A stretch of DNA of 64,000 bases from Acholeplasmataceae bacterium (GCA_965657915.1 CBFHPN010000006.1:3057-67056), one strand, 5' to 3'; shown: positions 20,228 through 35,567, counted from the first letter of the stretch. Numbers and translations are program-made. Notes: generated by a model not told the origin, from the letters alone.

Positions 20228-20257
20228 TGTGTTATGTTATACTACACATGTAATACA

Positions 20258-20365
20258 ATCTTCAGGGCAGGGTGCAATTCCCGATCGGCGGTAAAGTCCG
20301 CGAGCCTACGGGCAGGATTTGGTGAAATTCCAAAACCGACAGTATAGTCTGGATGGGAGAAGATA
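20258..20365 (+). promoter_or_regulatory. FMN riboswitch (RFN element)
   Basis: CUUCAGGGCAGGGUGCAAUUCCCGAUCGGCGGUAAAGUCCGCGAGC...GGAUUUGGUGAAAUUCCAAAACCGACAGUAUAGUCUGGAUGGGAGAAG matches the RFN consensus. TATACT -10 at 20238..20243. Confidence 0.9.
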
Positions 20366-20395
20366 TGGTTTTTTAACCTTATTTTTTACTTTACT

Positions 20396-20425
20396 ATGCC
20401 CTGAAAATGGGCATTTTTATTTTTA
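20396..20425 (+). terminator. FMN-riboswitch attenuator terminator
   Basis: atgccc-tgaaaa(t)-gggcat followed by a T-rich run, immediately before the ribD SD. Confidence 0.7.
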
Positions 20426-20438
20426 TTAGGAGTGAATC

Positions 20439-21509: not shown

Positions 21510-21511
21510 TT

Positions 21512-22123: not shown

Positions 22124-22127
22124 GAAG

Positions 22128-23339
22128 ATGATGGCGATTAAACTTAATACCATTGAAGACGCAATCTTAGATATTCAATTAGGTAAGATGGTCATTGTCG
22201 TTGATGATGAAGATCGAGAAAATGAAGGTGATCTTGTCATGGCAGCAGAAAAAGTGAGACCTGAAGATGTCAATTTTATGGCGACTTATGGTAAAGGACT
22301 CATTTGTGTTCCACTCAAAGAATCAAACGCTCAAAAACTAGGTTTAGATGAAATGGTTAAAAAAAATACCGATGTGTTTAGAACGAATTTTACAATATCA
22401 GTTGATGCAATCGATACAACAACAGGTATATCTGCAAAAGAACGCGCACATACAATTCAAATGTTGGTTCATGATAAAGCGACTGATCGAGACTTTAGAA
22501 AGCCTGGACATATCTTTCCCCTCATTGCTCAAGAAGGTGGTGTATTAAAACGTGCTGGCCATACTGAAGCAAGTATTGATCTTGCATTACTTGCTGGATT
22601 AAAACCTGTTGGTGTCATTTGTGAAATTATGAATGATGATGGATCCATGGCAAGACTTGACGATTTAATGATGTATAAAGAAAAACATCAATTGAAAATC
22701 ATTTCAATTCAAGATTTAATCGAATATAAAAGAAAAAAAGAAACCTATATTACACGTTCAGCAAGTGCAGTGATGCCAACCATTTCGGGTGAATTTGAAA
22801 TGGTTGGGTATGAAAATATATTAAATAAAGAACATCACGTTGCACTTGTAAAAGGTGATGTTAAAGGTAAAGAAGATGTTTTAGTAAGAGTACACTCTGA
22901 GTGTTTAACGGGAGATGCATTTGGATCTTTACGTTGTGATTGTGGAGATCAACTTCATGCAGCGATGCATACGATTGAAGAAGAGGGATTAGGCATTGTT
23001 TTATACATGAGACAAGAAGGCAGAGGGATTGGGTTAATTAATAAAATTAAAGCATACCATCTTCAAGATCAAGGGTATGATACCGTTGAAGCTAATTTAA
23101 AATTAGGCTTTAAAGATGATTTAAGAGATTATGGTATTGGTGCACAGATTTTAGCGGATTTAGGCGTGAAATCGATAAGATTAATGACGAACAATCCAAG
23201 AAAAATCGTTGGACTAGAAGGCTATGGCATTAAAATTTCTGACCGAGTATCCATTCAAATGAATCATAATGAAAGAAATGAATTTTATTTAAAAACAAAA
23301 AAACAAAAACTTGGGCATATGCTCGACATAAAGGAGTAG
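22128..23339 (+). CDS. ribBA: bifunctional 3,4-dihydroxy-2-butanone-4-phosphate synthase / GTP cyclohydrolase II
   Basis: [12 protein letters not shown] (DHBP synthase) and [19 protein letters not shown] (GCH II zinc site). Confidence 0.9.
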
Positions 23340-23341
23340 AG

Positions 23342-23803
23342 ATGAAAACAATTGAAGGAAATTACATGGGTAAAGGTTTAAAAGTTGCGATCGTGATGAG
23401 TCGTTTTAATGAGATGATTGTTAAACAACTTGTTGAAGGTGCAAAAGATGGTTTAATCAGACACGGTGTTGATGAAAAAGACATCACAGTTGTTGCAGTA
23501 CCTGGTGCATATGAAATTCCACTGGCAGTTAAAAAAGTGGCAGAATTACAATCATATGATGCGATTATTGCATGCGGTGCAGTCATCCGTGGTGCAACCC
23601 CACACTTTGATATGGTTGCTAACGAAGTAACGGGTGGTATTGCGAAAGTTTCTCTTGAAAGTGGTGTCCCAGTCATTAACGCAGTTCTCACAACTGATTC
23701 TATTGAACAAGCAATTGAACGCGCTGGAACAAAAGCAGGAAACAAAGGATTCGATGCAGCTTTATCAGCCATAGAAATGGTAAATGTCATAAATAATCTA
23801 TAA
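23342..23803 (+). CDS. ribH: 6,7-dimethyl-8-ribityllumazine synthase
   Basis: [10 protein letters not shown]...VPGAYEIP...[12 protein letters not shown]. Confidence 0.9.
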
Positions 23804-23831
23804 AAAAACGTTGCTTAGGCAACGTTTTTCT
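23804..23831. terminator. bidirectional intrinsic terminator
   Basis: aaaaaa-acgttgc-ttag-gcaacgt-ttttt between convergent genes. Confidence 0.75.
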
Positions 23832-24567
23832 TTTGAAATTTATAAAGTAACACATACATTAAACTCATCACAAATGCTCCTAGAAGCGTTGTTAAAGATA
23901 AATAAACAAAATTAAATTTAAAAAAATCAAATAAAATAAGTTCATGTCCCCATTCAAAAAATAATTCAAGAGGGGTTCCATTTTCAGGCTTTAAGCTATA
24001 AAAATAATTTGCATATTGACCCGATATGAGATATAAAATATTATTCATTATTATTGATAATATAAATAATATAAAGACAACAATAAACGTTTTTTTAAGA
24101 TAATGAAAATCAAGTTTGATAAAGCCTTTAAAATAAGCCCATAGTGGTAATGTCACTAAAATCATGTGTCCGAAAATATATGCAAAACCTCTAAAGGTTA
24201 GTATAGTGTCATAGTGACTTAAGCTATTTGCGAAAATAATAGAAACAAATGCAGCTGGCAAATTCAAAATAAGTGCAAAATTAAACCAAATTTGTTGTTT
24301 TTTTAAGAAAGCAATCAATAATACAAAATTCGCAAAATGACATATTTGTAAAGGTAATAACTCGATATCAAAATTAAGACCATTAGTAATAAATATTTCT
24401 AAATTTCTTGAAAACAAAATGACAATTGCAACAATACTTAACCAAATGCCAATTTTAGTATTGGTTTCATCATTAGTGTTTTTTGTAAAATATAATAAAA
24501 TAAATAGTGAGATAAACGGAGACACTACAAATAGTAAATGACCGATAGAATACATTTCAAATGTCAT
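23815..24567 (-). CDS. polytopic membrane protein, possibly YwaF/TIGR02206-like (function unknown)
   Basis: 250 aa with about 7 TM segments and an LPLQICHFANF motif. Family assignment is from memory only. Confidence 0.35.
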   Translation of the reverse strand: MTFEMYSIGHLLFVVSPFISLFILLYFTKNTNDETNTKIGIWLSIVAIVILFSRNLEIFITNGLNFDIELLPLQICHFANFVLLIAFLKKQQIWFNFALILNLPAAFVSIIFANSLSHYDTILTFRGFAYIFGHMILVTLPLWAYFKGFIKLDFHYLKKTFIVVFILFILSIIMNNILYLISGQYANYFYSLKPENGTPLELFFEWGHELILFDFFKFNFVYLSLTTLLGAFVMSLMYVLLYKFQKKNVA

Positions 24568-24647: not shown

Positions 24648-26108
24648 CTAAGATATTTTTTCAATGTGTAGTTTTGAGTTAATTAAGTGGCTTTCTTTAG
24701 TATCTTCATCCATTTTATTTAATAAGTTAACCATCATGGACATTCTAGGGTTAGATTTTAAAGTATCTTTATGTTTGTCTATGAAATTCCAATACAAACC
24801 GTTAAACGGACAAGCCTTTTCACCAGTTTTTATGGTTGGATCGTATTTACAACCCTCACAATAGTTACTCATTTTCTTTATATAAGACGCACCAGATATA
24901 TATGGTTTTGTTGACATTAAGCCACCATCAGCATATAACCCCATTCCCATAACATTAGGTGTGACAACCCAATCAAATGAATCAATATATAGGCTATTAA
25001 ACCAATCATTGACTTCAATCGGGTTGACACCTATAAGATTCGCATAATTGGATAAAATCATAAGTCTTTGAATATGATGGTTATATCCATTTTCTAAAGT
25101 TTCTTCAATGGTATGTGATAAACAGGATAAATCTGTATTTGCACTCCAATAAAAAGCAGGTAAAGAGTGGTGATGTTTTAAAGCGTTTTTGTCATGATAA
25201 TCCGGTGTATTTAAATACACGCCACGGATATATTCCCGCCAACCAAGAACTTGTCTGATGAAGCCTTCAGCAGGTTGAATTTCACAGACGCCATCATGAT
25301 ACGCTTGTTCGACTGCTTTAATCACATCCATGGGACTAAGTAGACCTAAATTCAAAGAAGAAGAAATAAGCGCATGCGACATGAAAGGCTCATGTTTAAT
25401 CATGACATCTTGATGATCACCAAACGTTGAAAGTCTGTAGTCAATAAAATGTTTGAGTGCTTGATTTGCTTGAGCGTGAGAAACAGGATAAATAAACGTA
25501 TCCAAATTACCTGGATGATCACTAAATAAAGCGTTTGTCCAATCAATTGATTGTTGCGTTAAAACATCGATTTCAAAGGTTAAAGGTTCATGAAAACGCA
25601 ATCCCTTTTTAAAGGGTTTCCTATTATCCCCGTCAAAGGAAAATTTACCGCCAATAGGTAAATCATGATGCATTAAAATTTGATGTTTGTGTCGAAGCTT
25701 TCTGTATATTGTATCCATTTTCCATGGTTGTTTAGAAAGTAAAACTTTCCATTCATCTCTCGATACGATAAATAATGGATCATCAACATATGTAACATTC
25801 GTTAATGGTTTTATAAAGTTAAAATCAGCGTAATCATTAGGTAAAAATACATACGTTTGTGCGTGATTGTATGTCTCATAGAATGTATTTAAATCTTCAA
25901 TCAAAAGGTAACTCAAAGGATATGTTTTTTGATATGTGTCAATAAAATGTAGTATTGCACTATGATGAAGTGCAATTCTTTTTTTATGATATAGATGTCT
26001 CTTATAAAAAGATAGATGCTCAAATACAATAATTTCATCAAATTCAATATTGAGATGATTAATATAGGTTTGATTCAGTTGAAATGGAAACAATAATAAA
26101 GTTTTCAT
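24648..26108 (-). CDS. FeS-cluster cryptochrome/photolyase family protein (FeS-BCP; CryB/PhrB (6-4)-photolyase-like)
   Basis: HHIQRLMILSNYANL..VNDWF..YIDSFDWVVTPNVMGM..ADGG..KPYISGASYIKKMSNYCEGCKYD...KACPFNGLYWNF parallels R. sphaeroides CryB as I recall it. Four Cys (SCLSH, CEGC, ACPF) fit the 4Fe-4S ligands. Confidence 0.8.
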   Translation of the reverse strand: MKTLLLFPFQLNQTYINHLNIEFDEIIVFEHLSFYKRHLYHKKRIALHHSAILHFIDTYQKTYPLSYLLIEDLNTFYETYNHAQTYVFLPNDYADFNFIKPLTNVTYVDDPLFIVSRDEWKVLLSKQPWKMDTIYRKLRHKHQILMHHDLPIGGKFSFDGDNRKPFKKGLRFHEPLTFEIDVLTQQSIDWTNALFSDHPGNLDTFIYPVSHAQANQALKHFIDYRLSTFGDHQDVMIKHEPFMSHALISSSLNLGLLSPMDVIKAVEQAYHDGVCEIQPAEGFIRQVLGWREYIRGVYLNTPDYHDKNALKHHHSLPAFYWSANTDLSCLSHTIEETLENGYNHHIQRLMILSNYANLIGVNPIEVNDWFNSLYIDSFDWVVTPNVMGMGLYADGGLMSTKPYISGASYIKKMSNYCEGCKYDPTIKTGEKACPFNGLYWNFIDKHKDTLKSNPRMSMMVNLLNKMDEDTKESHLINSKLHIEKIS

Positions 26109-27463
26109 GAGCGGCTCACTTTTTTTACAGGTTTAGGATAGTTTTGAATACCATATAAAATACGTTCTTTTTCTGAGAATTCACTTATTTTATATTTTAA
26201 TGGATTCGGAACATCTTTTATTTCGGGTAAAAAAACATCTAAAAATTGACAGTTTGTATCATAACGTTCTCCTTGCGTGATGTAGTTAAACATTCTATTT
26301 TCTCGAGGATCATTTCCTAGCCCTGCGTTATAGAGCCAATTGAGGGTATTAGAAGAAACGTCATAATCAATCAAATAAGATTCAAAAAATGCAGCACCGA
26401 TACGCCAATCTTGATTTAAAAATTTCGTTAAAAAATTAGCAACATTTTGTCTTCCTCTATTCGACATATATCCAGTTTGAACAAGTTGCCTCATATTTGC
26501 ATCAATGAGTGGATACCCTGTTTTTCCCTCTTTCCATGCTGTAATAAAGTATTGATTAGGAGAAATATGATGTGATTGTGACAACCCTGCTTGATTGAAA
26601 ATACGATTGTGATATTTTTTGTGAGTAAAATAAAAGTAATCACGCCATAGTAACTCAAAATAAATCCAATAAGTCGAATCATTTTTAACATAAGTTGCTT
26701 CATACTTTTTAACCTCATTCATAATACGATTAACAGATAATGCACCCATTGAGAGATAAGCTGAAAATTTCGTGGAATCATTAAAATTCAACATACCATT
26801 ACGAGTTTCTTTGTATGTTTTTGCAAGTTGATCATTAAATAAATAATTTGTTAAATGGTTTAATGCTGCAGTTTCACCAGGTTGGATGTAGTGATTGATT
26901 TGTAAAATATTCAGATCATCTAAATTCGGAATATCGCTTTCTATAGATATTTTTGGTTGTTGAACTAAAGTGTCACACTCTTTAAAATTAACAGGAAATC
27001 GTTCGATTTTATGTCTAAATTGTGTAAAAACAAATGGCAAATCTTCTATTGAAAAAGGCAGCATATGTGTTTTGTAAAGTGGTTTCATTTCCTCATGATA
27101 GGTCGGTATGTTTAAGGTGGAAATGAAATCATATCTTTTTCTTTCCTCCTCACCAGGTAGTTTTTCAAAATATATAGATTCTATATTAAGTTCTCTAATC
27201 AATTCTTTTAATATAAAAGCAAAGTCCCCTTTTTTTACAAGAAGCGGAATATTCAATGTATTCAGTTGCTGATTTAAATCGAGCAATGTATCATATAAAA
27301 AAGACAACCAAGGATCACTTTTCTTTTTGAACCCAAAATTATTGAGATTAAACCAAGCTTCATCAAATACAAAAAGTCCCACTACTGAACCACTTTCCAG
27401 TGCTTTTTTCAGCAAAGGTTGATCATGGATTCGCAAATCATTTTGAAAGAGGTAAAGGTTCAT
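26105..27463 (-). CDS. DASH-type cryptochrome
   Basis: MNLYLFQNDLRIHDQPLL N-terminus; TGYPLIDANMRQL; GYMSNRGRQNVANFL; DYDVSSNTLNW. ATGA-coupled to the downstream FeS-BCP gene. Confidence 0.8.
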   Translation of the reverse strand: MNLYLFQNDLRIHDQPLLKKALESGSVVGLFVFDEAWFNLNNFGFKKKSDPWLSFLYDTLLDLNQQLNTLNIPLLVKKGDFAFILKELIRELNIESIYFEKLPGEEERKRYDFISTLNIPTYHEEMKPLYKTHMLPFSIEDLPFVFTQFRHKIERFPVNFKECDTLVQQPKISIESDIPNLDDLNILQINHYIQPGETAALNHLTNYLFNDQLAKTYKETRNGMLNFNDSTKFSAYLSMGALSVNRIMNEVKKYEATYVKNDSTYWIYFELLWRDYFYFTHKKYHNRIFNQAGLSQSHHISPNQYFITAWKEGKTGYPLIDANMRQLVQTGYMSNRGRQNVANFLTKFLNQDWRIGAAFFESYLIDYDVSSNTLNWLYNAGLGNDPRENRMFNYITQGERYDTNCQFLDVFLPEIKDVPNPLKYKISEFSEKERILYGIQNYPKPVKKVSRS

Positions 27464-27474
27464 ATAAACTCCTA

Positions 27475-27483
27475 TGTTATAAT
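27475..27483 (+). promoter_or_regulatory. extended -10 (TGTTATAAT) placed 7 nt before the arcA ATG (leaderless mRNA predicted)
   Basis: TGnTATAAT ends at 27483 and the ATG is at 27490. There is no SD in between. Confidence 0.5.
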
Positions 27484-27489
27484 CATACT

Positions 27490-28641
27490 ATGATAGTAAA
27501 ACACGATACAGATCCATTACAAGTTGTATTGGTTCATCAACCAGGTAAAGAAATTGAACAACTCATGCCAGGTAATCTTACAAGATTACTTTTTGATGAT
27601 GTTCCTTTTTTAGATCAAGCCATTCAAGAACATCAAACCATGACGGATTACCTAATACAACATCATGTTCAAGTTCATGATATTACCGAACTTGCTATTG
27701 AAGTCATACAAGATGATCGTCTTAAAGATGAACTTATTAATATCATCATACACGATTTAAAGCAACAATCACAATCTGTGGTAGAACGTGTGAGAAAAAA
27801 ACTTAAAGCATCTTCTTTAGAATCGATTGTGAATACGTATGTTGGGGGACTGACGTATATGGAATTAGATTTAGATAATAAAAAGACGCTTTTTATTTTA
27901 GATCCGCTTCCCAATTTATTATTTCAAAGAGATCCAATGTTTATGATTCATGACATATGCGTGATTAGTCATATGAACATGGAAGCAAGAAGAAGAGAAG
28001 CAATGCTATCAAAGTTTATCATTAAACATCACCCACTATTTATGCATCAACGCATGATTGACATGTCTGATCAAAAACATTCTATTGAAGGTGGGGATAT
28101 CATACTATTGGATGATTATATCTTGATTGGTATTTCAGAACGGACAACAAAAGAAGCTGCAATAGAATTAATCAAACGATTAAAAGCATTTGATTTATCA
28201 TATCAAACGATACTCATAGAATTACCAAATCATCGCAGTTATATGCATTTAGATACTGTCATCACCCCCATTAAAAAAGATGTATTTGTCTATGATAAAC
28301 ATGCATTTGAAAATAGCCTCTTGTATCAATTAGTCAACGATGAGATGGAAATCATTCATACGTCATTTGAGGTATTGATGAAGCAACAATTTGGTGATAT
28401 TTCATTTATTGAAGTAGGGGATGGTGATCAAATTTATGCAAAGAGAGAACAGTGGAATGATGCTGCAAATACATTAGCCATCGCGCCTAATCATATTATT
28501 TGTTACGATAGAAATGTGATTACAAATGAACTATTTAAATCACATGGAGTAACGTACTTTTCTATGCCGTCTTCTGAGTTATCTAGAGGACGTGGTGGTC
28601 CGCATTGTATGACCATGCCACTTTATAGAAAAAGCCTCTAA
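27490..28641 (+). CDS. arcA: arginine deiminase
   Basis: ORF track 27400..28641, but its first 30 codons are antisense to cry-DASH. From ATG 27490: VVLVHQPGKEIEQLMPGNLTRLLFDDVPFLDQAIQEH (ArcA N-terminus). C-terminal GGPHCMTMPL holds the catalytic Cys. Confidence 0.85.
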   Translation: MIVKHDTDPLQVVLVHQPGKEIEQLMPGNLTRLLFDDVPFLDQAIQEHQTMTDYLIQHHVQVHDITELAIEVIQDDRLKDELINIIIHDLKQQSQSVVERVRKKLKASSLESIVNTYVGGLTYMELDLDNKKTLFILDPLPNLLFQRDPMFMIHDICVISHMNMEARRREAMLSKFIIKHHPLFMHQRMIDMSDQKHSIEGGDIILLDDYILIGISERTTKEAAIELIKRLKAFDLSYQTILIELPNHRSYMHLDTVITPIKKDVFVYDKHAFENSLLYQLVNDEMEIIHTSFEVLMKQQFGDISFIEVGDGDQIYAKREQWNDAANTLAIAPNHIICYDRNVITNELFKSHGVTYFSMPSSELSRGRGGPHCMTMPLYRKSL

Positions 28642-29606
28642 CGAGGCTTTAGCATGATTTCAATCCCAGAAGCAACGCCTTCATCTTCATAGATGAGGGT
28701 GTTTTTTTTATATAGTTTTAAATGAATGTTTCCAGATAGACCTTCTTTGATGGTTTCATTCATTTGACCTAATCGAGGAGAAGGTAAATCTTTATAGTCT
28801 GATGTTGTCGCGGTCACAACTAATTTTAAAGTGCGTTTTTTGAGTGTTATTGAAACTGAAGTATCATCATAAGTAATATGTTTAACAGCACTTAAATTAT
28901 AAGTCGCAAAACGGTACTCTCTGCCTTCTATTACTAAAACACAGATTAATCCTTTAAATTTAAAAAATAAAAAAGGGATGGTTGCATAAGATAACATAAA
29001 TGATGTTTTAGGATCTTTAAAATGATTCGATTGCATCCAAGTATAACTACTAGGAAAAGATGTACCCCAGTCTTTTTCGATATAACCCTTTCCATGATTA
29101 AAGGAAATGGCTTCTTTCTCAAGTAAAATTGAACCTTTTACTTGATGAGACATCGAGACGATGCCGTGATAGGTTTCCATAAAACCTAAATATCCAAACG
29201 GTCCCATAATGGATGGAAAAATTAAGCTTTTTTTAATTGGCGTAAGGTGCTGATTTTCTAAATGAACTTGCAAATCTAATTCTTCATTATCGATTGAAAA
29301 AAACATGGATTCACTAGAAAATATGTTGTGTGCAATTTGAATCTTAAATATCTTTGGATGGAAAGAGAAGTCTTTAATATCATATTTGAAATAATATGTT
29401 TTCAATGTTTCATTCTCTTTTGTTCGATCAGAAATAAAAACTTGAATAAAGGCATGTGTATCATGTTTATTTAAACTAATTCCTGGTATAAAGGCAAAGG
29501 TATGAGACAAATTTTTTGTTACATACTTAAAATACCAACCTTCAAAGTAGTTTTTTTTCTTTAAATGTCCTTGAAATATTTCGGGGTGAAATGTCTTATA
29601 AAACAT
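28638..29606 (-). CDS. tocopherol-cyclase family (PF14249-like) protein
   Basis: YFEGWYFKYV and GYIEKDWGTSFPSSYTWMQSN parallel the plant VTE1 motifs FFEGWYFRV and SEKNWGGGFPRKWFWVQCN (recalled). 322 aa, apparently soluble. Confidence 0.65.
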   Translation of the reverse strand: MFYKTFHPEIFQGHLKKKNYFEGWYFKYVTKNLSHTFAFIPGISLNKHDTHAFIQVFISDRTKENETLKTYYFKYDIKDFSFHPKIFKIQIAHNIFSSESMFFSIDNEELDLQVHLENQHLTPIKKSLIFPSIMGPFGYLGFMETYHGIVSMSHQVKGSILLEKEAISFNHGKGYIEKDWGTSFPSSYTWMQSNHFKDPKTSFMLSYATIPFLFFKFKGLICVLVIEGREYRFATYNLSAVKHITYDDTSVSITLKKRTLKLVVTATTSDYKDLPSPRLGQMNETIKEGLSGNIHLKLYKKNTLIYEDEGVASGIEIMLKPR

Positions 29607-29615
29607 GATTTTCTC

Positions 29616-29645
29616 CTAAAAAAAAGACTAAGTTTCCTTAGTCTT
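29616..29645 (-). terminator. intrinsic terminator immediately after the heliorhodopsin gene
   Basis: Minus-strand RNA agacuaag-gaaa-cuuagucu followed by U8. Confidence 0.75.
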
Positions 29646-29654
29646 TAGTATAGC
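29646..29654 (-). promoter_or_regulatory. extended -10 (TGCTATACT, minus strand) for the tocopherol-cyclase-like gene, abutting the terminator
   Basis: The reverse complement of agtatagca is TGCTATACT. The predicted start site lies inside the first hairpin arm. Confidence 0.4.
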
Positions 29655-29659
29655 ATATC

Positions 29660-30487
29660 TTATGAAGGTTGGAATGCTCCAAATAGAACTAGCCATGTAA
29701 GTAATGTTTTAGCGACAAGAGATAAGATGACATAACCTCTTTCTCCATATAAGTAATCTTTAAATTTACCTATTCCAGCATATTGTAAGTACATGTTTAC
29801 TGGGAATGTATTAAATGCAATAAAGTAAGTTGCTAAGATTGCCCAAACGAATCCAGGAACATTTTCTAAATTAGGGTTCACACCAATATAGAATGCGATG
29901 GCAACCCATGGTGCAAGACCTACGATTGAACCAAAGATAAATGGTAGCCAATTGACTTTTTTACCAACTTTAGACTCACCTTGGTTAAGTAATTCCATAT
30001 CTAAACCAAAGAAGTTCATCGCTGCATTTGCAAGTGCGATTAGTGCGAATACAGCAACATCTCTCACACCAAATAATGATGAAATTAAGATAATCATGAG
30101 TGATGAAGATAATGCATATTCATACCATCTAAATTTGTTAATACCAACTTTTAAACCTGCACGGTATTCATCTTTCCAAACAAATGCAATTAAAAAGTGG
30201 AAGATACCAGAAATAAGTAAGAAACTCGCTGTCATTTGTAAGAACGGTAATTCAAATAAGGTATCAGTGTTCGTTAAGATTAATCCTTCTCCTTGAACAA
30301 ATTCTAAGTAATTCCCAATCACTGGGATGGTAAATGCACCTTGACTTGTCATACTTGGGTAAATGAAGAATGCAAAAATCATCATAAATAACCCTTGAAC
30401 TAAATGGACAACACCCATTTTTTTATTAAATGAGATGAGTTTATCAATTTTCACATCAACATTTAATGTTTGAACTTCTGTAGACAT
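29660..30487 (-). CDS. heliorhodopsin
   Basis: ORF track 29660..30541. I prefer ATG 30487 after AAAGGAGA. Motifs VVHLVQG, IFHFLIAF, FRWYEYALSSSLMIILIS and LYGERGYVILSLVAKTLLTW match heliorhodopsin 48C12 (VFHLLQM, LFHFIVS, FRWVEYSLSSSVMIVLIA, LRGERAYIVLSLVAKSALAW). This includes the Schiff-base Lys, the Glu counterion and both His positions. Confidence 0.85.
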   Translation of the reverse strand: MSTEVQTLNVDVKIDKLISFNKKMGVVHLVQGLFMMIFAFFIYPSMTSQGAFTIPVIGNYLEFVQGEGLILTNTDTLFELPFLQMTASFLLISGIFHFLIAFVWKDEYRAGLKVGINKFRWYEYALSSSLMIILISSLFGVRDVAVFALIALANAAMNFFGLDMELLNQGESKVGKKVNWLPFIFGSIVGLAPWVAIAFYIGVNPNLENVPGFVWAILATYFIAFNTFPVNMYLQYAGIGKFKDYLYGERGYVILSLVAKTLLTWLVLFGAFQPS

Positions 30488-30519
30488 AATAATCTCCTTT
30501 ATATTATGATTATGCCTTG

Positions 30520-30528
30520 AGTATATCA
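30520..30528 (-). promoter_or_regulatory. extended -10 (TGATATACT, minus strand) for the heliorhodopsin gene
   Basis: The reverse complement of agtatatca is TGATATACT, about 33 nt upstream of ATG 30487. Confidence 0.4.
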
Positions 30529-30564
30529 CACAATCTATCACGATGTTAGAGAATCTTTTTGTTA

Positions 30565-30573
30565 TGGTAAAAT
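30565..30573 (+). promoter_or_regulatory. extended -10 (TGGTAAAAT) for crtN-crtM-phr
   Basis: TGnTAAAAT 22 nt upstream of ATG 30595. Confidence 0.4.
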
Positions 30574-30594
30574 ATGGAAGAAAATAAGGTGAAT

Positions 30595-32085
30595 ATGAAA
30601 AAAGTCATTATCATAGGTGCTGGCACAGCTGGGCTATCTTCAGCAATTAGACTTCAATCAAAAGGATTCCAAGTTGAAATCTATGAAAAAAACGACCGTG
30701 TTGGCGGTCGTATGTTTCAACTTAAAGACAAAGGGTTTACCTTTGATTATGGTCCGACCATTACGATGTTACCTGATGAATATAAAGATGTATTTATCGC
30801 TTCAGGTGTGAATCCAGATGATTATTTACAGATGACAGCACTTGATCCACTTTATAAATTATACTTTAGAGATGGAACATCATTTCAAGTATCTTCAAAT
30901 TTAAATCAATTGATGAAAGAACTGGAAAAATTCGGTGAAGATGAAGCATATGGATATTTATCATATTTATCTGATGTATACGGACGCTATATCATTGCAA
31001 AAAAACATTTTTTAGATGTTTCATATCGAAGAAAAAGAGATTTTTTTAATTTAAAAACACCTTATCATGGGTACCGTTTAAAAACACTTAACAATGCATA
31101 TGATTCTATTTCAAGATTTGTTAAAAATGAAAAACTAAGACAAGCATTATCGTTTCAAACGTTATATATTGGTGTTTCTCCATTTCAAGGTCCATCCATT
31201 TATACCATCATCCCGATGATAGAATTACTTTATGGGATTCATTACATTAAGGGTGGGATGTATCAAATGGCTACTGCCATGGAAAAACGTTTTTTAGAGC
31301 TTGGTGGAAAAATTCATTTGAATCAATCTGTTGATGAAATCATGATTAAAGATCAAATTGCACAAGGGATAAGAATTAATGATGATATCAAAGAAGCAGA
31401 TATCATTTTAACGAATGCAGATTTTCCTTGGGCTGTTGAAAACTTAATTAAAGAACCTAAAAATAGAGGGAAATTTAAAGATAAAAAAGTTAAAAAAATG
31501 ACATATTCATCTTCAGTATTCATTATGTATATGGGACTTGATAAAAAGTATCCCACGGATATCCATTCATTAAGATTTGCTGCAGATTTCAAGAAAAATA
31601 TTCATGATTTATTTGAGTCAAAAATACCTGAAGACCCATCATTTTATTTATATTCACCCTCTCAAATTGATGAAAGTGTTGCACCTAAAGGAAAAGAAAT
31701 TTTATATGTTTTAGTACCTGTTCCTAATACACAAGATAAACATGTCAACTGGGATGAAGCACAGGTGACGTATTATCAATCTAAAATTTTATCAATGATC
31801 GAACAAATCCCAACGTTTCATGATATTAGAGAACATATTGAAGTCATGCATGTCTCAACGCCAAATACATGGGAAGAAAAATTTAATTTAAATCACGGTG
31901 CAACGTTTGGACTTCGTCCTACCTTGAGCCAAAGTTTATACTTTAGACCGCAAGCAACATTAAAACCTTTAAAAAATGTTTACTTCACAGGATCATCAAC
32001 GCATCCTGGTCCTGGCGTTCCAATTGTTTTAAAATCAGCAAAACTTGCTGTCAATGAAATACTAAAGGATCATCCGCATGAATGA
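30595..32085 (+). CDS. crtN: 4,4'-diapophytoene desaturase-like (CrtN type) phytoene desaturase family protein
   Basis: ORF track 30574..32085. I prefer ATG 30595 (MKKVIIIGAGTAGL). GGRMFQLKDKGFTFDYGPTITMLPDEYKDVF, FQTLYIGVSPFQGPSIYTIIPMIE and GSSTHPGPGVPIVLKSAKL track S. aureus CrtN as recalled. Confidence 0.8.
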   Translation: MKKVIIIGAGTAGLSSAIRLQSKGFQVEIYEKNDRVGGRMFQLKDKGFTFDYGPTITMLPDEYKDVFIASGVNPDDYLQMTALDPLYKLYFRDGTSFQVSSNLNQLMKELEKFGEDEAYGYLSYLSDVYGRYIIAKKHFLDVSYRRKRDFFNLKTPYHGYRLKTLNNAYDSISRFVKNEKLRQALSFQTLYIGVSPFQGPSIYTIIPMIELLYGIHYIKGGMYQMATAMEKRFLELGGKIHLNQSVDEIMIKDQIAQGIRINDDIKEADIILTNADFPWAVENLIKEPKNRGKFKDKKVKKMTYSSSVFIMYMGLDKKYPTDIHSLRFAADFKKNIHDLFESKIPEDPSFYLYSPSQIDESVAPKGKEILYVLVPVPNTQDKHVNWDEAQVTYYQSKILSMIEQIPTFHDIREHIEVMHVSTPNTWEEKFNLNHGATFGLRPTLSQSLYFRPQATLKPLKNVYFTGSSTHPGPGVPIVLKSAKLAVNEILKDHPHE

Positions 32086-32995
32086 TTGGTTTACGTTCAG
32101 TTTATTGATATTTGCGGGTGTCGTCGTTTTCTTACTTACGTTGATTTACTTAAGAGAGAGACGTCTTATTAAGTACTGCGAACAGATCATTAAAAAAAAT
32201 TCACTCACCTTTTATAAAGCTTTTTCAAAAATTGAAAACAAAAAGCAGAGACAAGCCATTTACGTTGTTTATGCTTTTTGTCGTTATGCAGATGATTTAA
32301 TTGATGAACACCAAGATATTGAGGGTCTAAACCAATTAGAACTAGAACTAGAAGCATTTAAAAATCATAAAAAGACCTCACTAAAAGTATTTAAAGCTTT
32401 GAGTCTCATCAAAGATCAGTTTTATGGTGAAAATTATGACTATCAACCATACTTTGAAATGATCCAAGGTCAAAGGATGGATATCACCATCGCTTCGTAT
32501 GAAACCATGGATGATGTTTTAGCGTATTGTTATTATGTAGCGTCTTCAGTAGGTCTGATGTTACTTCCGATTTTAGCACCGAGTAAACATCAGGAATTAA
32601 AAGAATTCGCAATACAACTTGGATATGCGATGCAAATCACTAATTTCTTACGGGATGTTGGAGAAGATTATCTCAAAGGAAGAATTTATATTCCTCAAGC
32701 CGATTTGAAAAAGTTTCAAGTCGATCTTGACCATGAGTTCAAGATGGGTCCAACAGACTCATTTAAAACACTATTTAATCATTTAGCAACGCAAGCAAGA
32801 CAATACTATCAATACGCATATGATCATATGGAAGCATTTAGTCAAGATGTAAGAACACCATTACTTTATGCAGCTAAATTATATGAAGCCATCCTTGATG
32901 AGTGTATGACAGATTATGATGTATTTACGAAAAAGCATTTTGTTTCTCATGCTAAAAAAATAGATATCATTAAAGGACTTCAAAAAAATCTTTAA
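32078..32995 (+). CDS. crtM: squalene/phytoene synthase family, CrtM-like (4,4'-diapophytoene synthase type)
   Basis: 8-nt overlap with crtN. YAFCRYADDLID and NFLRDVGEDY are the two Asp-rich motifs. Has an N-terminal TM helix. Confidence 0.8.
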   Translation: MNDWFTFSLLIFAGVVVFLLTLIYLRERRLIKYCEQIIKKNSLTFYKAFSKIENKKQRQAIYVVYAFCRYADDLIDEHQDIEGLNQLELELEAFKNHKKTSLKVFKALSLIKDQFYGENYDYQPYFEMIQGQRMDITIASYETMDDVLAYCYYVASSVGLMLLPILAPSKHQELKEFAIQLGYAMQITNFLRDVGEDYLKGRIYIPQADLKKFQVDLDHEFKMGPTDSFKTLFNHLATQARQYYQYAYDHMEAFSQDVRTPLLYAAKLYEAILDECMTDYDVFTKKHFVSHAKKIDIIKGLQKNL

Positions 32996-33015
32996 ACACA
33001 TACGTTGGAGTGTAT

Positions 33016-34386
33016 ATGAATACAAATAGAATCAAAGTTATTCAAGAAGTCACCAATCACAATCAGCATAAAATCTTATATTGGATGCAAAGTGCGCAAC
33101 GCATCCATTATAATCATGCACTTAATCATGCGATTGAACTTGCTAACAAACACAAAAAAGAACTGCACGTGATGTTTAATATTATACCTTCTTATAAAGA
33201 TGCAAATCGTAGACACTATATGTTTATGTTAGAGGGAATCAAAGAGTTAGAACGAACATTTTTAGAACTTAAAATACCGTTTAAAGTAACCTTTGGACTC
33301 CCTGATGAAAACATTTCAAAACACTTAAATGATGATGATATATTAATCCTTGATAAAGCATACTTAAAACAACCACGACAATGGAGAAACGCTTTATATC
33401 AACGTATTAAAGGTAAAAATACCATTATTGAAATTGATACCGAACTGATTGTTCCTGTGGAACATGCATCTAGTAAAATGGAATACGGGGCATATACCAT
33501 ACGTCCTAAACTTCATAAACTTTTTGATGTCTTTAATGATCATGACGTGTTGCCGGCATATAAAGGTCCATATCAAAAACTTACTTCAGATGTAGAACTA
33601 AATGATTTAGATGCTTTTATAGAAACACTTCCTATTGATCAATCCGTGATTGAGACATCTTTATTTAAAGGTGGATATGGCGAAGCAGTTCAAAGACTTC
33701 AAACATTTATTCAATTTAAAGCAAAAGATTATTTAGAAAGAAATGCACCGGGTGAACAAGTGACGTCTACACTTTCGCCTTATTTGCATTTTGGTCAAAT
33801 ATCGTCACTTGAAATCGTTCACGCCATTCAACACGCTAAAGATGAAGGGATGATCAATCAAGAGACCTTTGATGGTATTTTTGAACAAGTGTTTGTGAGA
33901 AGAGAACTTGCCTTTAATTTTGTCTATTATAATCAAAACTACGATCAATTTGACTATATAACAGAACCTTGGGCATACAAAACGATGCAAGAACATCAAG
34001 ATGACTTTAGACCTTTCATTTATTCAAAAGAAACGTTAGAATCTTCCCAGACTCACGATCCATATTTCAATGCTGCCATGGATGAAATGAAAGTGAGTGG
34101 CTATATGCATAATTATATGCGCATGTATTGGGCTAAAAAAATTATTGAATGGTCAAATTCATATCAAGAAGCATATGAAACGACCTTATATTTAAATAAT
34201 AAATACTTCTTAGATGGTAGAGATCCAAATTCATATACGAGTGTTGCATGGAATTATGGTCGTCATGATCGTGCATGGAATGAAAGAACCATCTTAGGTA
34301 AATTGCGTTACATGAATGATAAAGGATTAGAAAGAAAGTTTGACATGAAGAAATACATCAACTATGTTGAAAGTATAAAAAAATAA
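33016..34386 (+). CDS. class II CPD photolyase
   Basis: ORF track 33010..34386; ATG 33016 lies 5 nt after GGAG. ILYWMQSAQRIHYNHAL, SPYLHFGQIS, GYMHNYMRMYWAKKIIEW, DGRDPNSYTSVAWNYGRHDRAW, LRYMN..GLERKFD. Confidence 0.85.
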   Translation: MNTNRIKVIQEVTNHNQHKILYWMQSAQRIHYNHALNHAIELANKHKKELHVMFNIIPSYKDANRRHYMFMLEGIKELERTFLELKIPFKVTFGLPDENISKHLNDDDILILDKAYLKQPRQWRNALYQRIKGKNTIIEIDTELIVPVEHASSKMEYGAYTIRPKLHKLFDVFNDHDVLPAYKGPYQKLTSDVELNDLDAFIETLPIDQSVIETSLFKGGYGEAVQRLQTFIQFKAKDYLERNAPGEQVTSTLSPYLHFGQISSLEIVHAIQHAKDEGMINQETFDGIFEQVFVRRELAFNFVYYNQNYDQFDYITEPWAYKTMQEHQDDFRPFIYSKETLESSQTHDPYFNAAMDEMKVSGYMHNYMRMYWAKKIIEWSNSYQEAYETTLYLNNKYFLDGRDPNSYTSVAWNYGRHDRAWNERTILGKLRYMNDKGLERKFDMKKYINYVESIKK

Positions 34387-34409
34387 GACCTCAAGGTCTT
34401 ATTTTTTTA
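34378..34409. terminator. bidirectional intrinsic terminator
   Basis: aaaaaa-taagacc-tcaa-ggtctta-ttttttt between convergent genes. Confidence 0.75.
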
Positions 34410-35178
34410 ATTTTGGGAAGAAAATGGGTGTATGCTTAGCATATTCTTGATACAGTGCGTTATCTTGATATCTTTTTTCAAGTAAGGGTACACCAGATAC
34501 ATATCTAAGAAGATATCCCATTATCAGTGTGCCAATAATTGCAAAAGCATAATGTAAATCAAAACTATAAAACATAATGACAAAATAACTCATCCAAATC
34601 ATAAAGTCACCAAAGTAGTTCGGATGTCTGGTGTAAGCCCATAACCCTTTATCCATGATTTTCCCCTTATTATTTGGGTTCGACTTAAAGCGCTTAAGTT
34701 GAGCATCTGATACACTTTCAAAGATAAAGCCAATGATAAATAAGACAATCCCTAACCCTAACACCACATAATGAAACCATTCTAAACCTTCTTTGACATA
34801 AAAGACACTTTGAAGGGGCAATGAAATTACAAATGCAAGTAATATCTGGAGATAAAAGACTTTAAAGTAAGCATGAACATAAGGAATATTTCCCCATTTT
34901 TTTCTCATGTTGACATAACGGTAATCTTCAGGTTTAGACCAGTTACGTAACAATAAATAGTAAGTGAGTCTTAATCCCCATAAAGTAACAAAACTTAGTA
35001 TCGAAATAGAAGCGAGGGTAACTACGTCTGTATATAGAAAGACGGTCCAAGTGATCACAACAAAGCTTAGTCCCCAAGCAATGTCAATCAGTCCTAGATT
35101 TTTCTTGATGACACTGATTAAAAACCAAACATGTAAATAAATAAAAAGAACACTTGCTAAAACAATCAAATGTGTCAT
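34399..35178 (-). CDS. DUF1295 family membrane protein (steroid-reductase/ICMT-like fold)
   Basis: ORF track 34399..35238. ATG 35178 forms an ATGA overlap with the upstream gene. GLWAYTRHPNYFGDFMIW motif. Confidence 0.65.
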   Translation of the reverse strand: MTHLIVLASVLFIYLHVWFLISVIKKNLGLIDIAWGLSFVVITWTVFLYTDVVTLASISILSFVTLWGLRLTYYLLLRNWSKPEDYRYVNMRKKWGNIPYVHAYFKVFYLQILLAFVISLPLQSVFYVKEGLEWFHYVVLGLGIVLFIIGFIFESVSDAQLKRFKSNPNNKGKIMDKGLWAYTRHPNYFGDFMIWMSYFVIMFYSFDLHYAFAIIGTLIMGYLLRYVSGVPLLEKRYQDNALYQEYAKHTPIFFPKLKK

Positions 35179-35567
35179 AAAAGATGACCAATTAAATAGG
35201 TGAGTGTGGAGACAGAAAATCCTAAAAATGTTCCCCATGTGATATCTATGAGTGTGACTTTAATCGGCCACTTATCAAGGGTTGCTAAGTTTGTTAAGTC
35301 GTATGTTGCATACGTAATGAAACCATAAAGTCCACCATAAAGCATGGCATGATTCAGTGACATAGCATCTAAGGCTGGAACAATTGCAAAAATCATTAAA
35401 AAGATAATATACAAAACATAAAAAACAAGCGCAGCATACCAATTTGGTTTTTTCGCTAAAATATAACCAATTTGTGTTTGGTACATCTTTTTAGCAAATA
35501 GACCTAACCATAAAATGTCAATGATAAAAAAGATGATAAATGCAATGAGAAAAATTAATATGTTCAT
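35175..35567 (-). CDS. DUF2177 family membrane protein
   Basis: FIIDILWLGLFAKKMY...YATYDLTNLATLDKWP, the characteristic DUF2177 pattern as recalled. 130 aa with 4 TM segments. Confidence 0.6.
   Translation of the reverse strand: MNILIFLIAFIIFFIIDILWLGLFAKKMYQTQIGYILAKKPNWYAALVFYVLYIIFLMIFAIVPALDAMSLNHAMLYGGLYGFITYATYDLTNLATLDKWPIKVTLIDITWGTFLGFSVSTLTYLIGHLL

Follow-up and report, generated by a model that had tools for sequence, protein, structure and literature searches.

The heliorhodopsin (HeR) gene studied here lies at the centre of an island of light-response and photoprotection genes that is conserved in a wall-less, Acholeplasmataceae-like lineage of Bacilli. Of the features of this island, the pairing of HeR with a gene for a tocopherol-cyclase-like (TC-like) protein is the most conserved, and its three carotenoid genes are, on the evidence of sequence comparison, of the C30 type. 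We consider it probable, though well short of certain, that the island as a whole serves photoprotection, that its C30 pigments are separate from the chromophore, and that HeR receives its retinal from outside and acts as a sensor. The analysis covered a single window of 64,000 nucleotides (64 kb), and its main features are listed in Table 1.

Table 1. Features of the HeR island, with positions counted from the first nucleotide of the window.
Feature	Position	Strand	Evidence and remarks
Aldehyde dehydrogenase	14433..15779	+	PF00171, E 2.3e-88
CrtP-type diapocarotenoid oxidase homologue	16738..18219	-	44%, 421 bits to the CrtP-position gene of S. pasteuri pSNJS701
ICMT-family membrane methyltransferase	18228..18815	-	PF04140, E 3.2e-16; directly upstream of crtP
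FMN riboswitch and ribD-ribE-ribBA-ribH riboflavin/lumazine operon	20254..23803	+	RF00050, 113.6 bits; Pfam
TMEM164/YwaF-like integral membrane protein, putative acyltransferase	23815..24567	-	PF14808, E 1.3e-18
FeS-BCP-type (6-4) photolyase homologue, DPRP family	24648..26108	-	PF04244
CRY-DASH-type cryptochrome/photolyase	26105..27463	-	TIGR02765, 428 bits (cutoff 317); DNA_photolyase and FAD_binding_7
TC-like soluble protein	28638..29606	-	PF14249; 53 nt downstream of HeR, same strand
HeR, 275 aa	29660..30487	-	PF18761, NF038020
Shared divergent promoter region, 107 bp	30488..30594	.	Between HeR and crtN; alignment, inferred promoter
CrtN-type 4,4'-diapophytoene desaturase homologue	30595..32085	+	TIGR02734, 433 bits; ORF opens at 30574, likely start 30595
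CrtM-type (C30) dehydrosqualene/diapophytoene synthase homologue	32078..32995	+	PF00494, E 1.8e-55
Class II CPD photolyase	33010..34386	+	TIGR00591, 463 bits; ends the crtN-crtM-phr unit
DUF1295 and DUF2177 membrane-protein pair	34399..35567	-	Pfam

The window is dense in coding sequence, with a partial gene in its first 908 bases, and two of the larger gaps, before the rib operon and before an amino-acid ABC transporter, contain riboswitches. Class II photolyase structures score 283–287 bits against the class II gene product, and the FeS-BCP-type photolyase scores 365 bits with PhrB (4dja) and 360 bits with CryB (3zxs). DUF2177 and photolyase are both named as recurrent HeR-neighbour groups in the parts of the published surveys drawn on here.

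The HeR ORF as listed (29660..30541, minus strand) matches PF18761 with an E value of 1.2e-80 (Pfam), and scores 251.6 bits against the NCBIfam equivalog NF038020, for which the cutoff is 100. The true start is the ATG at 30487, which has an AAGGAG ribosome-binding site 5' of it and therefore gives the product length listed in Table 1; close HeR homologues are all 274–276 aa long. The Schiff-base lysine (SLVAK, in TM7) and the single counterion glutamate (RWYEY, in TM3) can be aligned with those of TaHeR (6is6) and Cv06 (9vfc), and alignment with the same chains shows that the two conserved histidines (vHlvq and ifHfli) are present. The identification of the gene as HeR is thus borne out both by the family matches and by these canonical residues. 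A Lys-rich segment ahead of TM1 is consistent with an N-terminus inside the cell, as expected for the inverted topology. The residues of the fenestration, F183, S187, G190, F225, N226 and P229, correspond to F212, C216, G219, F254, N255 and P258 of Cv06 and are identical or conservative. In this structure-based alignment the pocket, the counterion and the lateral opening are all canonical, and there is therefore no hint of fitting to another chromophore; this weakens the earlier suggestion that HeR may bind a non-canonical polyene aldehyde. The protein also has the opposing aromatic pair, the glycine and the small fenestration-lining residues by which a recent preprint (10.1101/2025.11.27.691015) predicts a carotenoid-binding site. 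That site is based on docking and structural modelling, and was proposed for ring-bearing xanthophylls of extracellular origin.

The carotenoid enzymes were compared with C30 and C40 references. The CrtN-type desaturase scores 441–519 bits (43–50% identity) against CrtN-type enzymes of Staphylococcus, Enterococcus and Niallia, and 253–274 bits (30–32%) against CrtI of Pantoea, Thermus and Roseinatronobacter. Apart from its match to the pSNJS701 gene, the CrtP-type gene scores no more than 240 bits against any reference, and 347 bits against TIGR02734; the CrtP label of the pSNJS701 reference denotes its position in a crtOPQMN-like operon, whose gene order we take to be as the name implies. The CrtM-type synthase has a hydrophobic N-terminal extension and both of the Asp-rich motifs (YADDLID and RDVGED) of the SQS_PSY fold, and its closest solved structures are CrtM (8is6) and an Enterococcus hirae enzyme (5iys). 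It scores 142–176 bits against three CrtM-type enzymes and 80–113 bits against three CrtBs, a moderate separation that keeps the same order among plasmid matches; the synthase of one relative (L008) has near-equal scores with the two groups. Its residues F49, Y62 and F254 occupy the positions of F26, W38 and F233 of S. aureus CrtM, which have a size-determining role (PMC4510654), while the three aligned CrtBs have Ser at the F26 position and Leu at the F233 position. The gap between C30 and C40 references is 1.6- to 2-fold for both desaturases and smaller for the synthase. Bit scores and the Phe/Tyr/Phe set thus uphold the view of the sequence-only reading that the genes are nearer to CrtM, CrtN and CrtP than to CrtB and CrtI. 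We conclude from the score separation and the size-determining residues of CrtM that all three enzymes are of the predicted C30 type, and their product would be a C30 carotenoid.

The set resembles the staphylococcal crtOPQMN operon (S. pasteuri pSNJS701) in the identity of CrtM (34%), CrtN (43%) and CrtP (44%) and in the retention of the size-determining aromatics of CrtM. In contrast to that operon, no match to a CrtQ glycosyltransferase or a CrtO-type acyltransferase was found in the window, crtP lies 12 kb away from crtNM and adjoins the ICMT-like methyltransferase gene, and the order crtN-crtM is that of Enterococcus and Niallia. The end product is therefore probably something other than staphyloxanthin. 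The ICMT-family protein is possibly a carotenoate methyltransferase, and the aldehyde dehydrogenase, whose closest NCBIfam model is MdlD (455 bits, under its cutoff), possibly a diapocarotenal dehydrogenase. A partial HMG-CoA reductase is found at the start of the window, and was counted with the evidence for the C30 assignment.

A Pfam scan of every ORF of at least 100 aa in the 64-kb window gave no match to the lycopene cyclase, Blh/BCD, RPE65/CCD or polyprenyl synthase families, and tblastn with Pantoea CrtY, Pantoea CrtE and a Thermus CrtYcd-type cyclase gave zero matches in the window. No member of the canonical crtE-crtB-crtI-crtY-blh set is therefore present in it, and the statement that no cyclase, Blh or CCD is recognisable in the 64 kb holds on both searches. 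Since the only carotenoid genes are of C30 type, even the precursor of retinal is absent within the window. Species-representative genomes supplied 55 further HeR loci, taken with flanks of up to 10 kb; a CrtY or CrtYcd-type cyclase was matched in none of them (0/55), and a polyprenyl synthase in one (L055). It is correct, as had been argued, that a C30 backbone cannot give retinal by central cleavage. Central cleavage of a C30 carotenoid would, however, give a ring-less C15 analogue with the polyene length of retinal, so that "no retinal" is not strictly "no retinal-like aldehyde".

The original observation of a HeR with no visible retinal pathway therefore stands within the 64-kb window, but not as an anomaly, because this is the published norm. 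A survey of GTDB genomes found a complete retinal pathway in one of 381 HeR-only genomes, a β-carotene monooxygenase homologue in 55% and a retinol dehydrogenase candidate in 63%. In the published surveys blh is seldom a neighbour of HeR and seldom present where HeR is the only rhodopsin, with blh and HeR occurring together mostly where a type-1 rhodopsin is also present, and HeR is reported to take up exogenous retinal. The recurrent HeR neighbours described there already include carotenoid genes, photolyases and tocopherol cyclase, the last being interpreted as having an oxidative-stress function. The interpretation of a HeR without a retinal pathway is thus only partly new. More specifically, the survey sections consulted (Bulzu et al. 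2021; Chazan et al. 2021/2022) describe the same situation as in the window, with a monoderm host, no complete retinal pathway and no nearby blh, and the same neighbours (photolyases, phytoene-synthase- and desaturase-family genes, tocopherol cyclase and DUF2177); those sections do not single out Acholeplasmataceae-like hosts, the C30 nature of CrtM/N/P or the near-obligate HeR/TC-like pair.

HeR is followed by the TC-like gene in all nine related loci with a HeR of at least 80% identity, and the pair was seen in every contig retrieved via a TC-like homologue or a close HeR. It spans HeRs that are approximately 51–100% identical, including that of the cultured Peloplasma aerotolerans. Where the TC-like protein is at least 45% identical, HeR lies upstream in 11 of 16 metagenome loci; below 45% it does so in none of 35, and these more distant homologues have neither HeR nor consistent neighbours. 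L001, L003–L005, L008 and L065–L067 retain the divergent crtN-crtM-phrII unit; L076 and L137 have crtN-crtM with no detected phrII, and in L086 the only phrII match is weak and partial and falls at the locus edge. By comparison, the crt unit is absent beside HeR in L002, L006, L007, L009 and L064, all of which keep HeR and the TC-like gene. It follows that the carotenoid link is not obligatory, whereas the TC-like link is near-obligate. Elsewhere in the island, the rib operon is syntenic in L001, L005, L008 and L065, the ICMT-crtP pair is kept in L001 and L004, the TMEM164/YwaF-like gene has the same location in L065, and DUF1295/DUF2177 is syntenic with HeR in L001, L002, L004, L005, L007, L008, L009 and L090, and partly in L067.

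The TC-like protein matches PF14249 with an E value of 1.5e-16 (60.8 bits, cutoff 26.6), over residues 135–317 only, which is the C-terminal 60%. It shares with VTE1 and the tocopherol cyclase-like proteins of heterotrophic bacteria (PMC4963081) this family, motifs of the types YxEK[ND]WG and FPxxWxWxQxNxF, and an all-β double-barrel fold, but differs from them in the partial extent and weakness of its match. Its own motifs, YIEKDWG and FPSSYTWMQSNHF, are invariant across 65 homologues, and there are many invariant polar residues, including E22, H51, E144, H147, E177, K178 and D179. The AlphaFold2 model (pLDDT 92.8) gave Foldseek matches to AttH, Diels–Alderases, kievitone hydratase and 25-phosphosteroid lyase. 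The predicted fold is therefore of the cofactor-free AttH/hydratase/cyclase type, unlike any known carotenoid-cleaving oxygenase. The proposal that an unrecognised cleavage enzyme might be found among the TC-like, YwaF-like and DUF1295/DUF2177 proteins thus found no support: the first has this hydratase/cyclase-type fold, and nothing connects the membrane proteins TMEM164, DUF1295 and DUF2177 with cleavage. No quinone-biosynthesis genes were found in the 64-kb window, and we know of no tocopherol or plastoquinol in the host lineage. Respiratory quinones were not detected in P. aerotolerans, which argues against a prenylquinol as the substrate. A terminator-like hairpin lies between the two genes, and makes their co-transcription uncertain.

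HeR and crtN are divergently arranged. Alignment of seven related intergenic regions identified a conserved block, CCATATTTTACCATAAC, at 30561..30577 on the minus strand, which is kept while its flanks diverge and whose motif occurs once in the whole window. We read it as a putative extended −10 element (TGgTAAAAT) of crtN, and TGATATACT in the same region as the likely extended −10 of HeR. HeR and crtN-crtM-phr are perhaps co-regulated. The tight, conserved head-to-head arrangement of HeR and crtN-crtM could also mean a link more direct than co-regulation, such as an antenna or a chromophore role.

The mechanism that we propose is as follows. HeR would be a canonical retinal-binding and non-pumping protein with the TC-like enzyme encoded downstream, and the crtN-crtM-class II photolyase unit would be transcribed in the opposite direction from the shared 107-bp region. 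Farnesyl diphosphate from the mevalonate pathway would be converted by CrtM, CrtN and CrtP to C30 4,4'-diapocarotenoids, which would act as membrane photoprotectants and not as a source of chromophore; in the most plausible reading, the C30 genes share the locus for the sake of photoprotection rather than as a chromophore supply. As C30 carotenoids cannot yield retinal, the chromophore is probably of extracellular origin, and most likely scavenged, a proposal already made for HeR hosts generally. All-trans-retinal, taken up from the surroundings or made by a route encoded elsewhere, would reach HeR via the lateral fenestration, and HeR would be a light sensor that modulates partner proteins, with the class II photolyase, the TC-like enzyme or both as candidates.

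Three other explanations were weighed against this one. An ordinary retinal route could lie outside the window, either as C40 synthesis with a cyclase and Blh or CCD, or only as a Blh, CCD or retinol dehydrogenase with scavenged carotenoids or retinol as its substrate. The window is 64 kb of a contig of approximately 73 kb, the one complete genome among the matches, from the more distantly related Tenericutes bacterium MO-XQ, measures 2.07 Mb, and the monooxygenase and retinol dehydrogenase frequencies in the GTDB survey also speak for such a route; we nevertheless regard it as unlikely, given the single full pathway in that survey, the published tendency for blh to join HeR mainly alongside a type-1 rhodopsin, the C30 type of all three carotenoid enzymes in the window, and the lack of a cyclase in the 55 loci, with a polyprenyl synthase only in L055. 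It is very unlikely, in our view, that an unrecognised island enzyme makes or processes retinal or another retinoid; the prime candidate would be the TC-like protein, the constant partner of HeR, which might be a hydratase/lyase that needs no oxygen, might be a cyclase, or might carry a retinoid. The conservation of the pair, its persistence in P. aerotolerans, where respiratory quinones were not detected, the lack of HeR and of consistent neighbours around homologues below 45% identity, and the many invariant polar residues all speak for such a role; on the other side, no oxygenase is among its structural relatives, all of which are hydratases, cyclases or lyases that need no cofactor and act on hydrophobic substrates, non-oxidative formation of retinal is without precedent, one published survey reads tocopherol cyclase near HeR as an oxidative-stress function, and the hairpin separates the two genes.

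Equally slim are the chances that the organism's own C30 carotenoids serve HeR, as an oxygenated antenna bound in the fenestration or as a C30-derived Schiff-base aldehyde (a CrtP product or a C15 cleavage product). No cleavage enzyme is recognisable in the window, the pocket has the residues found in HeRs that bind retinal and shows no sign of re-shaping, the preprint site comes from docking and modelling and is meant for ring-bearing external xanthophylls, and five related loci have HeR and the TC-like gene with no crt genes nearby. Against this must be set the shared divergent promoter, which is kept in relatives whose TC-like protein is only 50–59% identical to that of the window, and the complete residue set of the putative carotenoid-binding site. 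Judged from the structures, moreover, the C15 aldehyde expected if a diapocarotenoid were cleaved centrally would match retinal in polyene length and methyl pattern, and acyclic retinals form working bacteriorhodopsin pigments (Crouch et al. 1984, as cited in PMC6849744). The fullest version is a long shot: HeR would be fed by its own C30 pathway, with retinal replaced by the C15 compound 3,7,11-trimethyldodeca-2,4,6,8,10-pentaenal (from 15,15' scission) or by a CrtP-made C30 aldehyde threaded through the fenestration, or with a C30 xanthophyll as antenna, and the TC-like protein would be a processing enzyme, possibly oxygen-independent. If this were true, wall-less and in part anaerobic bacteria would possess a rhodopsin system that is self-contained and free of retinal.

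Parts of the island have counterparts in known systems. HeR of Trichococcus flocculiformis (TfHeR) binds and stimulates the class II CPD photolyase of its own operon (Shim et al. 2022, PMC9769723). Both it and the HeR of the window come from Bacilli-class monoderm hosts and have a class II CPD photolyase within a few kb, and by analogy both may be light-dependent helpers of a soluble enzyme. The window differs in that the photolyase lies outside the HeR operon, in a divergent unit behind crtN-crtM, that the gene directly downstream of HeR encodes the TC-like protein, and that there are two further photolyase-family genes. In Thermus thermophilus, crtB-phr on pTT27 beside carH/ldrP likewise places a photolyase gene in the same transcription unit as a carotenoid synthase gene, a known arrangement in responses to light damage; the Thermus enzyme, in contrast, is a C40 CrtB with a cyclase and CrtI nearby. 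There, carH and ldrP confer light induction, and CarH is B12-dependent. No CarH/LitR-type regulator was seen in the window, where, unlike pTT27, a rhodopsin gene stands at the promoter instead.

These results add one more case to the established pattern of HeR hosts that are unable to make retinal, with the twist that only C30 carotenoid genes are present. They describe a compact and conserved HeR island in free-living wall-less Bacilli, which contains all three photolyase classes, a flavin/lumazine supply and C30 pigment genes, and which agrees with the view that HeR regulates photoprotection and carries that view further. The partners of HeR so far are glutamine synthetase, photolyase and an ABC transporter. 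As these have been found singly to date, it is worth having a further candidate that is open to experiment. The most useful new lead is the TC-like protein, whose gene is a near-obligate companion of HeR in one group of HeRs, a cultured species included.

The genes of the conserved light-response and photoprotection island around the heliorhodopsin (HeR) are listed in the table below, together with the other features of the window that are discussed here. The closest HeR loci among species-representative genomes are in metagenome-assembled genomes labelled Acholeplasmataceae or Bacillota (94–95% identity), followed by Izemoplasmatales and 'Tenericutes' genomes (74–78%), and the G+C content of the window is about 32%. 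We therefore place the host among the free-living Bacilli that have no cell wall. A partial HMG-CoA reductase gene, lying within the first 908 bases, runs off the window start; as judged by homology it indicates a mevalonate route to the isoprenoid precursors.

Features of the photoprotection island and other parts of the window (window positions)
Feature	Position	Strand	Evidence or context
Partial class-I-like HMG-CoA reductase	1..~800	-	147 bits against human and other HMGR structures
Lysine riboswitch	4995..5160	-	88.1 bits; ahead of amino-acid ABC transporter
Rnf/Nqr-like five-gene cluster	8736..12588	+	
CrtP-type gene	16738..18219	-	ICMT-family methyltransferase gene ahead of it
ICMT/Ste14-like methyltransferase (-) and Ste24-type CAAX prenyl protease (+)	18228..20179	-/+	back to back
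FMN riboswitch	20254..20368	+	113.6 bits; ahead of ribDEBAH
ribDEBAH operon			FMN-riboswitch-controlled; near HeR/crt genes
TMEM164-like membrane protein			near HeR/crt genes
DUF1295/DUF2177 pair			near HeR/crt genes
FeS-type (6-4) photolyase homologue	24648..26108		PhrB, 365 bits
CRY-DASH	26105..27463		TIGR02765, 428 bits
Arginine deiminase	27400..28641	+	between TC-like and CRY-DASH genes
Tocopherol-cyclase-like (TC-like) protein	28638..29606	-	PF14249, E 1.5e-16
Terminator-like hairpin and T-run	29623..29646	-	between HeR stop codon and TC-like ribosome-binding site
Heliorhodopsin	ORF 29660..30541, start ATG at 30487	-	PF18761, E 1.2e-80; NCBIfam HeR equivalog 251.6 bits (cutoff 100)
Conserved 17-nt block	30561..30577	-	HeR/crtN intergenic region
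CrtI-family desaturase (crtN)	ORF 30574..32085	+	TIGR02734, 433 bits
Hydrophobic segment of synthase ORF	32078..32155	+	~25 residues
Squalene/phytoene-synthase-family enzyme (crtM)	32078..32995	+	PF00494, E 1.8e-55
Class II CPD photolyase (phrII)	33010..34386		directly after crtM
Three consecutive ORFs	47852..50318	-	no significant Pfam match

An aldehyde dehydrogenase gene lies two genes from the CrtP-type gene, and a single gene separates ribH (lumazine synthase) from the FeS-type (6-4) photolyase homologue; in the solved relatives of this photolyase, the antenna is dimethyl-ribityllumazine. The methyltransferase and the Ste24-type protease, which has the five-helix N-domain, are kept as a pair in two related loci (L001 and L004). 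They could form a CAAX-processing-like pair, or the methyltransferase, whose gene is directly upstream of the CrtP-type gene, could act on a carotenoate. The arginine deiminase gene, on the strand opposite to its TC-like neighbour, recurs next to the island in six loci (L003, L005, L008, L064, L065 and L067). Further away, a five-gene cluster encodes an RnfD/NqrB-like protein, an FMN_bind protein (RnfG/NqrC-like), two Rnf-Nqr membrane subunits and, last, an NqrF-like Fer2/FAD/NAD protein (TIGR01941, 270 bits, just below the cutoff of 295). No NqrA, RnfC or RnfB gene was found beside this cluster, which is an unusual Rnf/Nqr part hybrid for a wall-less Bacilli genome. Two of the three consecutive ORFs (301 and 316 residues) have similar N-termini (…ERSYRRY…), one of them with a faint HTH_3 match, while the third, of 204 residues, has no Pfam match at all.

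The HeR had been described, from the sequence-only reading, as lacking a visible retinal pathway, with no lycopene cyclase and no Blh/Brp or CCD enzyme in the 64 kb. A Pfam scan of every window ORF of at least 100 residues bears this out, in that no lycopene cyclase, Blh-type dioxygenase, RPE65/CCD or polyprenyl synthase family was found; tblastn searches of the window with Pantoea CrtY, Pantoea CrtE and a Thermus cyclase also gave no match. The window is densely coded; the FMN and lysine riboswitches occupy two of its larger gaps, and its first 908 bases contain the partial reductase gene. The absence is therefore real within the 64-kb window.

The same reading had identified the carotenoid genes as C30-type (CrtM/CrtN/CrtP). 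The NCBIfam models did not distinguish C30 from C40 enzymes: no CrtM, CrtN or CrtP model matched, and the equivalog matches were all far below their cutoffs. Reference sets were therefore built from annotated plasmids, using for C30 a staphylococcal crtOPQMN-like operon and the crtN-crtM pairs of Enterococcus and Niallia, and for C40 the genes of Pantoea (crtE, X, Y, I, B), Thermus pTT27 and a Roseinatronobacter photosynthesis cluster. In BLASTP comparisons, the desaturase adjacent to HeR scored 441–519 bits against CrtN-type proteins (43–50% identity) and 253–274 bits against CrtI (30–32%). The CrtP-type desaturase scored 421 bits against the staphylococcal gene in the CrtP position (44% identity) and at most 240 bits against all others, and the synthase scored 142–176 bits against CrtM-type proteins and 80–113 bits against CrtB. 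The same order of C30 over C40 was obtained in a ranking across 72,556 plasmids. The top PDB relatives of the synthase are the CrtM structure 8is6 and the Enterococcus hirae enzyme 5iys (194 bits each), followed by S. aureus CrtM. At the positions of the S. aureus CrtM residues F26, W38 and F233, which are documented as size-altering (PMC4510654), the window synthase has F49, Y62 and F254, whereas three aligned CrtBs have Ser at the position equivalent to F26 and Leu at that equivalent to F233. At the level of sequence, the score gaps, structural relatives and size-determining residues thus all support the predicted C30 identity. The synthase ORF, whose first 8 nt are shared with the end of crtN, opens with a hydrophobic segment (MNDWFTFSLLIFAGVVVFLLTLIYL) that is not present in reference CrtM or CrtB proteins; this segment may anchor the protein in the membrane, or translation may in fact start further in.

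A HeR host in which no retinal pathway is visible is not very unusual, and the classes of genes found near HeRs are also known; what differs here is the lineage, and that the carotenoid genes are of C30 rather than C40 type. In Bulzu et al., genes for phytoene synthase, desaturase, cyclase and photolyase are described as flanking HeRs, and the recurrent neighbours given by Chazan et al. include tocopherol cyclase and DNA photolyase. A 2024 study has photolyase and DUF2177 among ten recurrent neighbour groups, and the HeR of Trichococcus was shown to bind the class II CPD photolyase encoded in its operon and to stimulate it (Shim et al., PMC9769723). These published elements all occur in the window. 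On Thermus pTT27, crtB is paired with phr next to carH and ldrP, two regulator genes, which provides a known parallel for combining pigment synthesis and photorepair in a single unit. Literature searches that joined HeR to Acholeplasma or Izemoplasma, or C30 carotenoids to Acholeplasma, returned nothing relevant, and a HeR without a visible retinal pathway in this lineage is not pointed out in the literature searchable here.

We consider it probable that three things hold jointly: the HeR would be a retinal-binding sensor of the ordinary kind within an island for photoprotection and photorepair, the C30 genes would produce membrane pigments and be co-located, perhaps co-regulated, with it, and its retinal would be scavenged. 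Bulzu et al. report a complete retinal pathway in only 1 of 381 HeR-only GTDB genomes and cite the view that HeR captures exogenous retinal, and Chazan et al. describe blh as rare in genomes that have only HeR as well as in HeR neighbourhoods. It is unlikely that this genome encodes a conventional or partial route to retinal elsewhere. We regard as decidedly improbable the direct use of C30 carotenoids by HeR, either as antenna or as chromophore. The landmarks of the retinal pocket are canonical, and no reshaping that would point to another chromophore was seen. The lateral opening of HeR is the entry route for retinal. Its residues F183, S187, G190, F225, N226 and P229 correspond to F212, C216, G219, F254, N255 and P258 of the Chromera HeR Cv06, which have been proposed in a 2025 preprint (10.1101/2025.11.27.691015) as a carotenoid-binding site common to HeRs. 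The sequence-only reading was correct that a C30 backbone gives no retinal by central cleavage; its argument takes one chemical qualification. Cutting a C30 diapocarotenoid at the 15,15' bond would, judging from the structures, yield a C15 aldehyde that has the full polyene and the 9- and 13-methyl groups of retinal and lacks the ring, and acyclic retinals are reported to give functional bacteriorhodopsin (Crouch et al. 1984, as cited in PMC6849744). A rhodopsin chromophore is thus not strictly at odds with C30 chemistry; however, no enzyme for such a scission is visible in the window.

It is similarly very unlikely that the TC-like protein has a retinoid-processing role. It had been put forward as a candidate for an unrecognised enzyme supplying the chromophore, and it is a poor candidate for carotenoid cleavage. 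From 65 homologues, AlphaFold2 gave a confident model (pLDDT 92.8), and a fold search with it returned AttH, the fungal Diels-Alderases Fsa2, Phm7 and CghA, kievitone hydratase and 25-phosphosteroid lyase; a sequence search of the PDB gave no match, so that the fold search alone was informative. These relatives are cofactor-free acid/base enzymes (hydratases, cyclases or lyases) acting on hydrophobic substrates, and nothing suggests an oxygenase; carotenoid cleavage was consequently dropped as the leading idea. The protein carries the YxEK[ND]WG and following motifs of tocopherol cyclases, which have also been described for 'cyclase-like proteins of heterotrophic bacteria' (PMC4963081), and has no signal peptide or convincing transmembrane segments. 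A function as a menaquinol or prenylquinol cyclase is weakened, because Peloplasma aerotolerans has the HeR/TC-like pair and, according to its description paper, no detectable respiratory quinones, which makes a prenylquinol substrate doubtful. We would tentatively take the protein to be an isoprenoid-lipid hydratase or cyclase, with HeR coupling its activity to light.

The HeR start is the ATG that follows AAGGAG, giving 275 residues as in all close homologues. An exact look-up of the 293-residue ORF found no match, because that ORF extends 18 codons beyond the true start. For the desaturase the most likely start is at 30595 (MKKVIIIGAG), and the divergent intergenic region is thus 107 bp long. 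Within it, a 17-nt block, CCATATTTTACCATAAC (CCATA-N5-CCATA), is identical or nearly so in the HeR/crtN intergenic regions of seven loci, while the sequence around it diverges. On the crtN strand the block reads as a putative extended -10 element, and TGATATACT reads as another facing HeR. The block may also be a regulator site; when it was sought elsewhere in the window as a shared operator, only this single copy was found, no more than expected by chance. The terminator-like hairpin suggests partial termination or attenuation inside the HeR/TC-like pair.

The pairing of HeR and the TC-like gene is highly conserved. In all nine loci with a HeR of at least 80% identity, the TC-like gene follows at +880 to +900 nt, even where its own identity is down to 44–51%. 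Contigs looked up through three TC-like homologues (50–59% identical to that of the window) and one close HeR homologue contained the pair in a 449-kb JGI contig (found through HeR), in Peloplasma aerotolerans and in two further lineages. In a scan of metagenomes, HeR was present at -830 to -940 in 11 of the 16 loci that had a TC-like protein of at least 45% identity and enough upstream sequence, these HeRs being 51–82% identical to that of the window, and in none of 35 loci below 45%. The neighbours of the latter group show no consistent context (Pirin 4, nitroreductase 3 and UbiA 2 of 119 flanking proteins) and give no pointer to function. The carotenoid genes are more patchily distributed: the divergent crtN-crtM-phrII unit is kept in eight homologue loci (L001, L003–L005, L008 and L065–L067), crtN-crtM occurs with no detected phrII in L076 and L137 and with no more than a partial, weak match to phrII at the locus edge in L086, and the crt unit is missing beside HeR in L002, L006, L007, L009 and L064. 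For this group of HeRs the TC-like link is thus near-obligate, and the carotenoid link frequent but dispensable.

Three of the related loci (L065 3164..4662, L066 3164..4662 and L067 3101..4595) have two extra genes between crtM and the class II photolyase, both absent from the window. One encodes a DUF92 (PF01940) protein, and the other a small protein with a weak CTP_transf_1 match in L067 and no Pfam match in L065 or L066. Plant VTE6 and VTE5, the prenyl-phosphate and prenol kinases, belong to the DUF92 and CTP_transf_1 families. With the VTE1-like TC-like protein, three tocopherol-pathway-like families surround one HeR, which may reflect a supply of CrtM by prenol salvage.

Peloplasma aerotolerans (L064, JASCXW010000018.1) is a cultured aerotolerant anaerobe from a mud volcano, in which a photolyase gene is divergent from the HeR/TC-like pair; its description paper nowhere mentions rhodopsin or photolyase. 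It is a ready experimental system, and the presence of the HeR/TC-like pair in a cultivable organism is the part of these results worth following.
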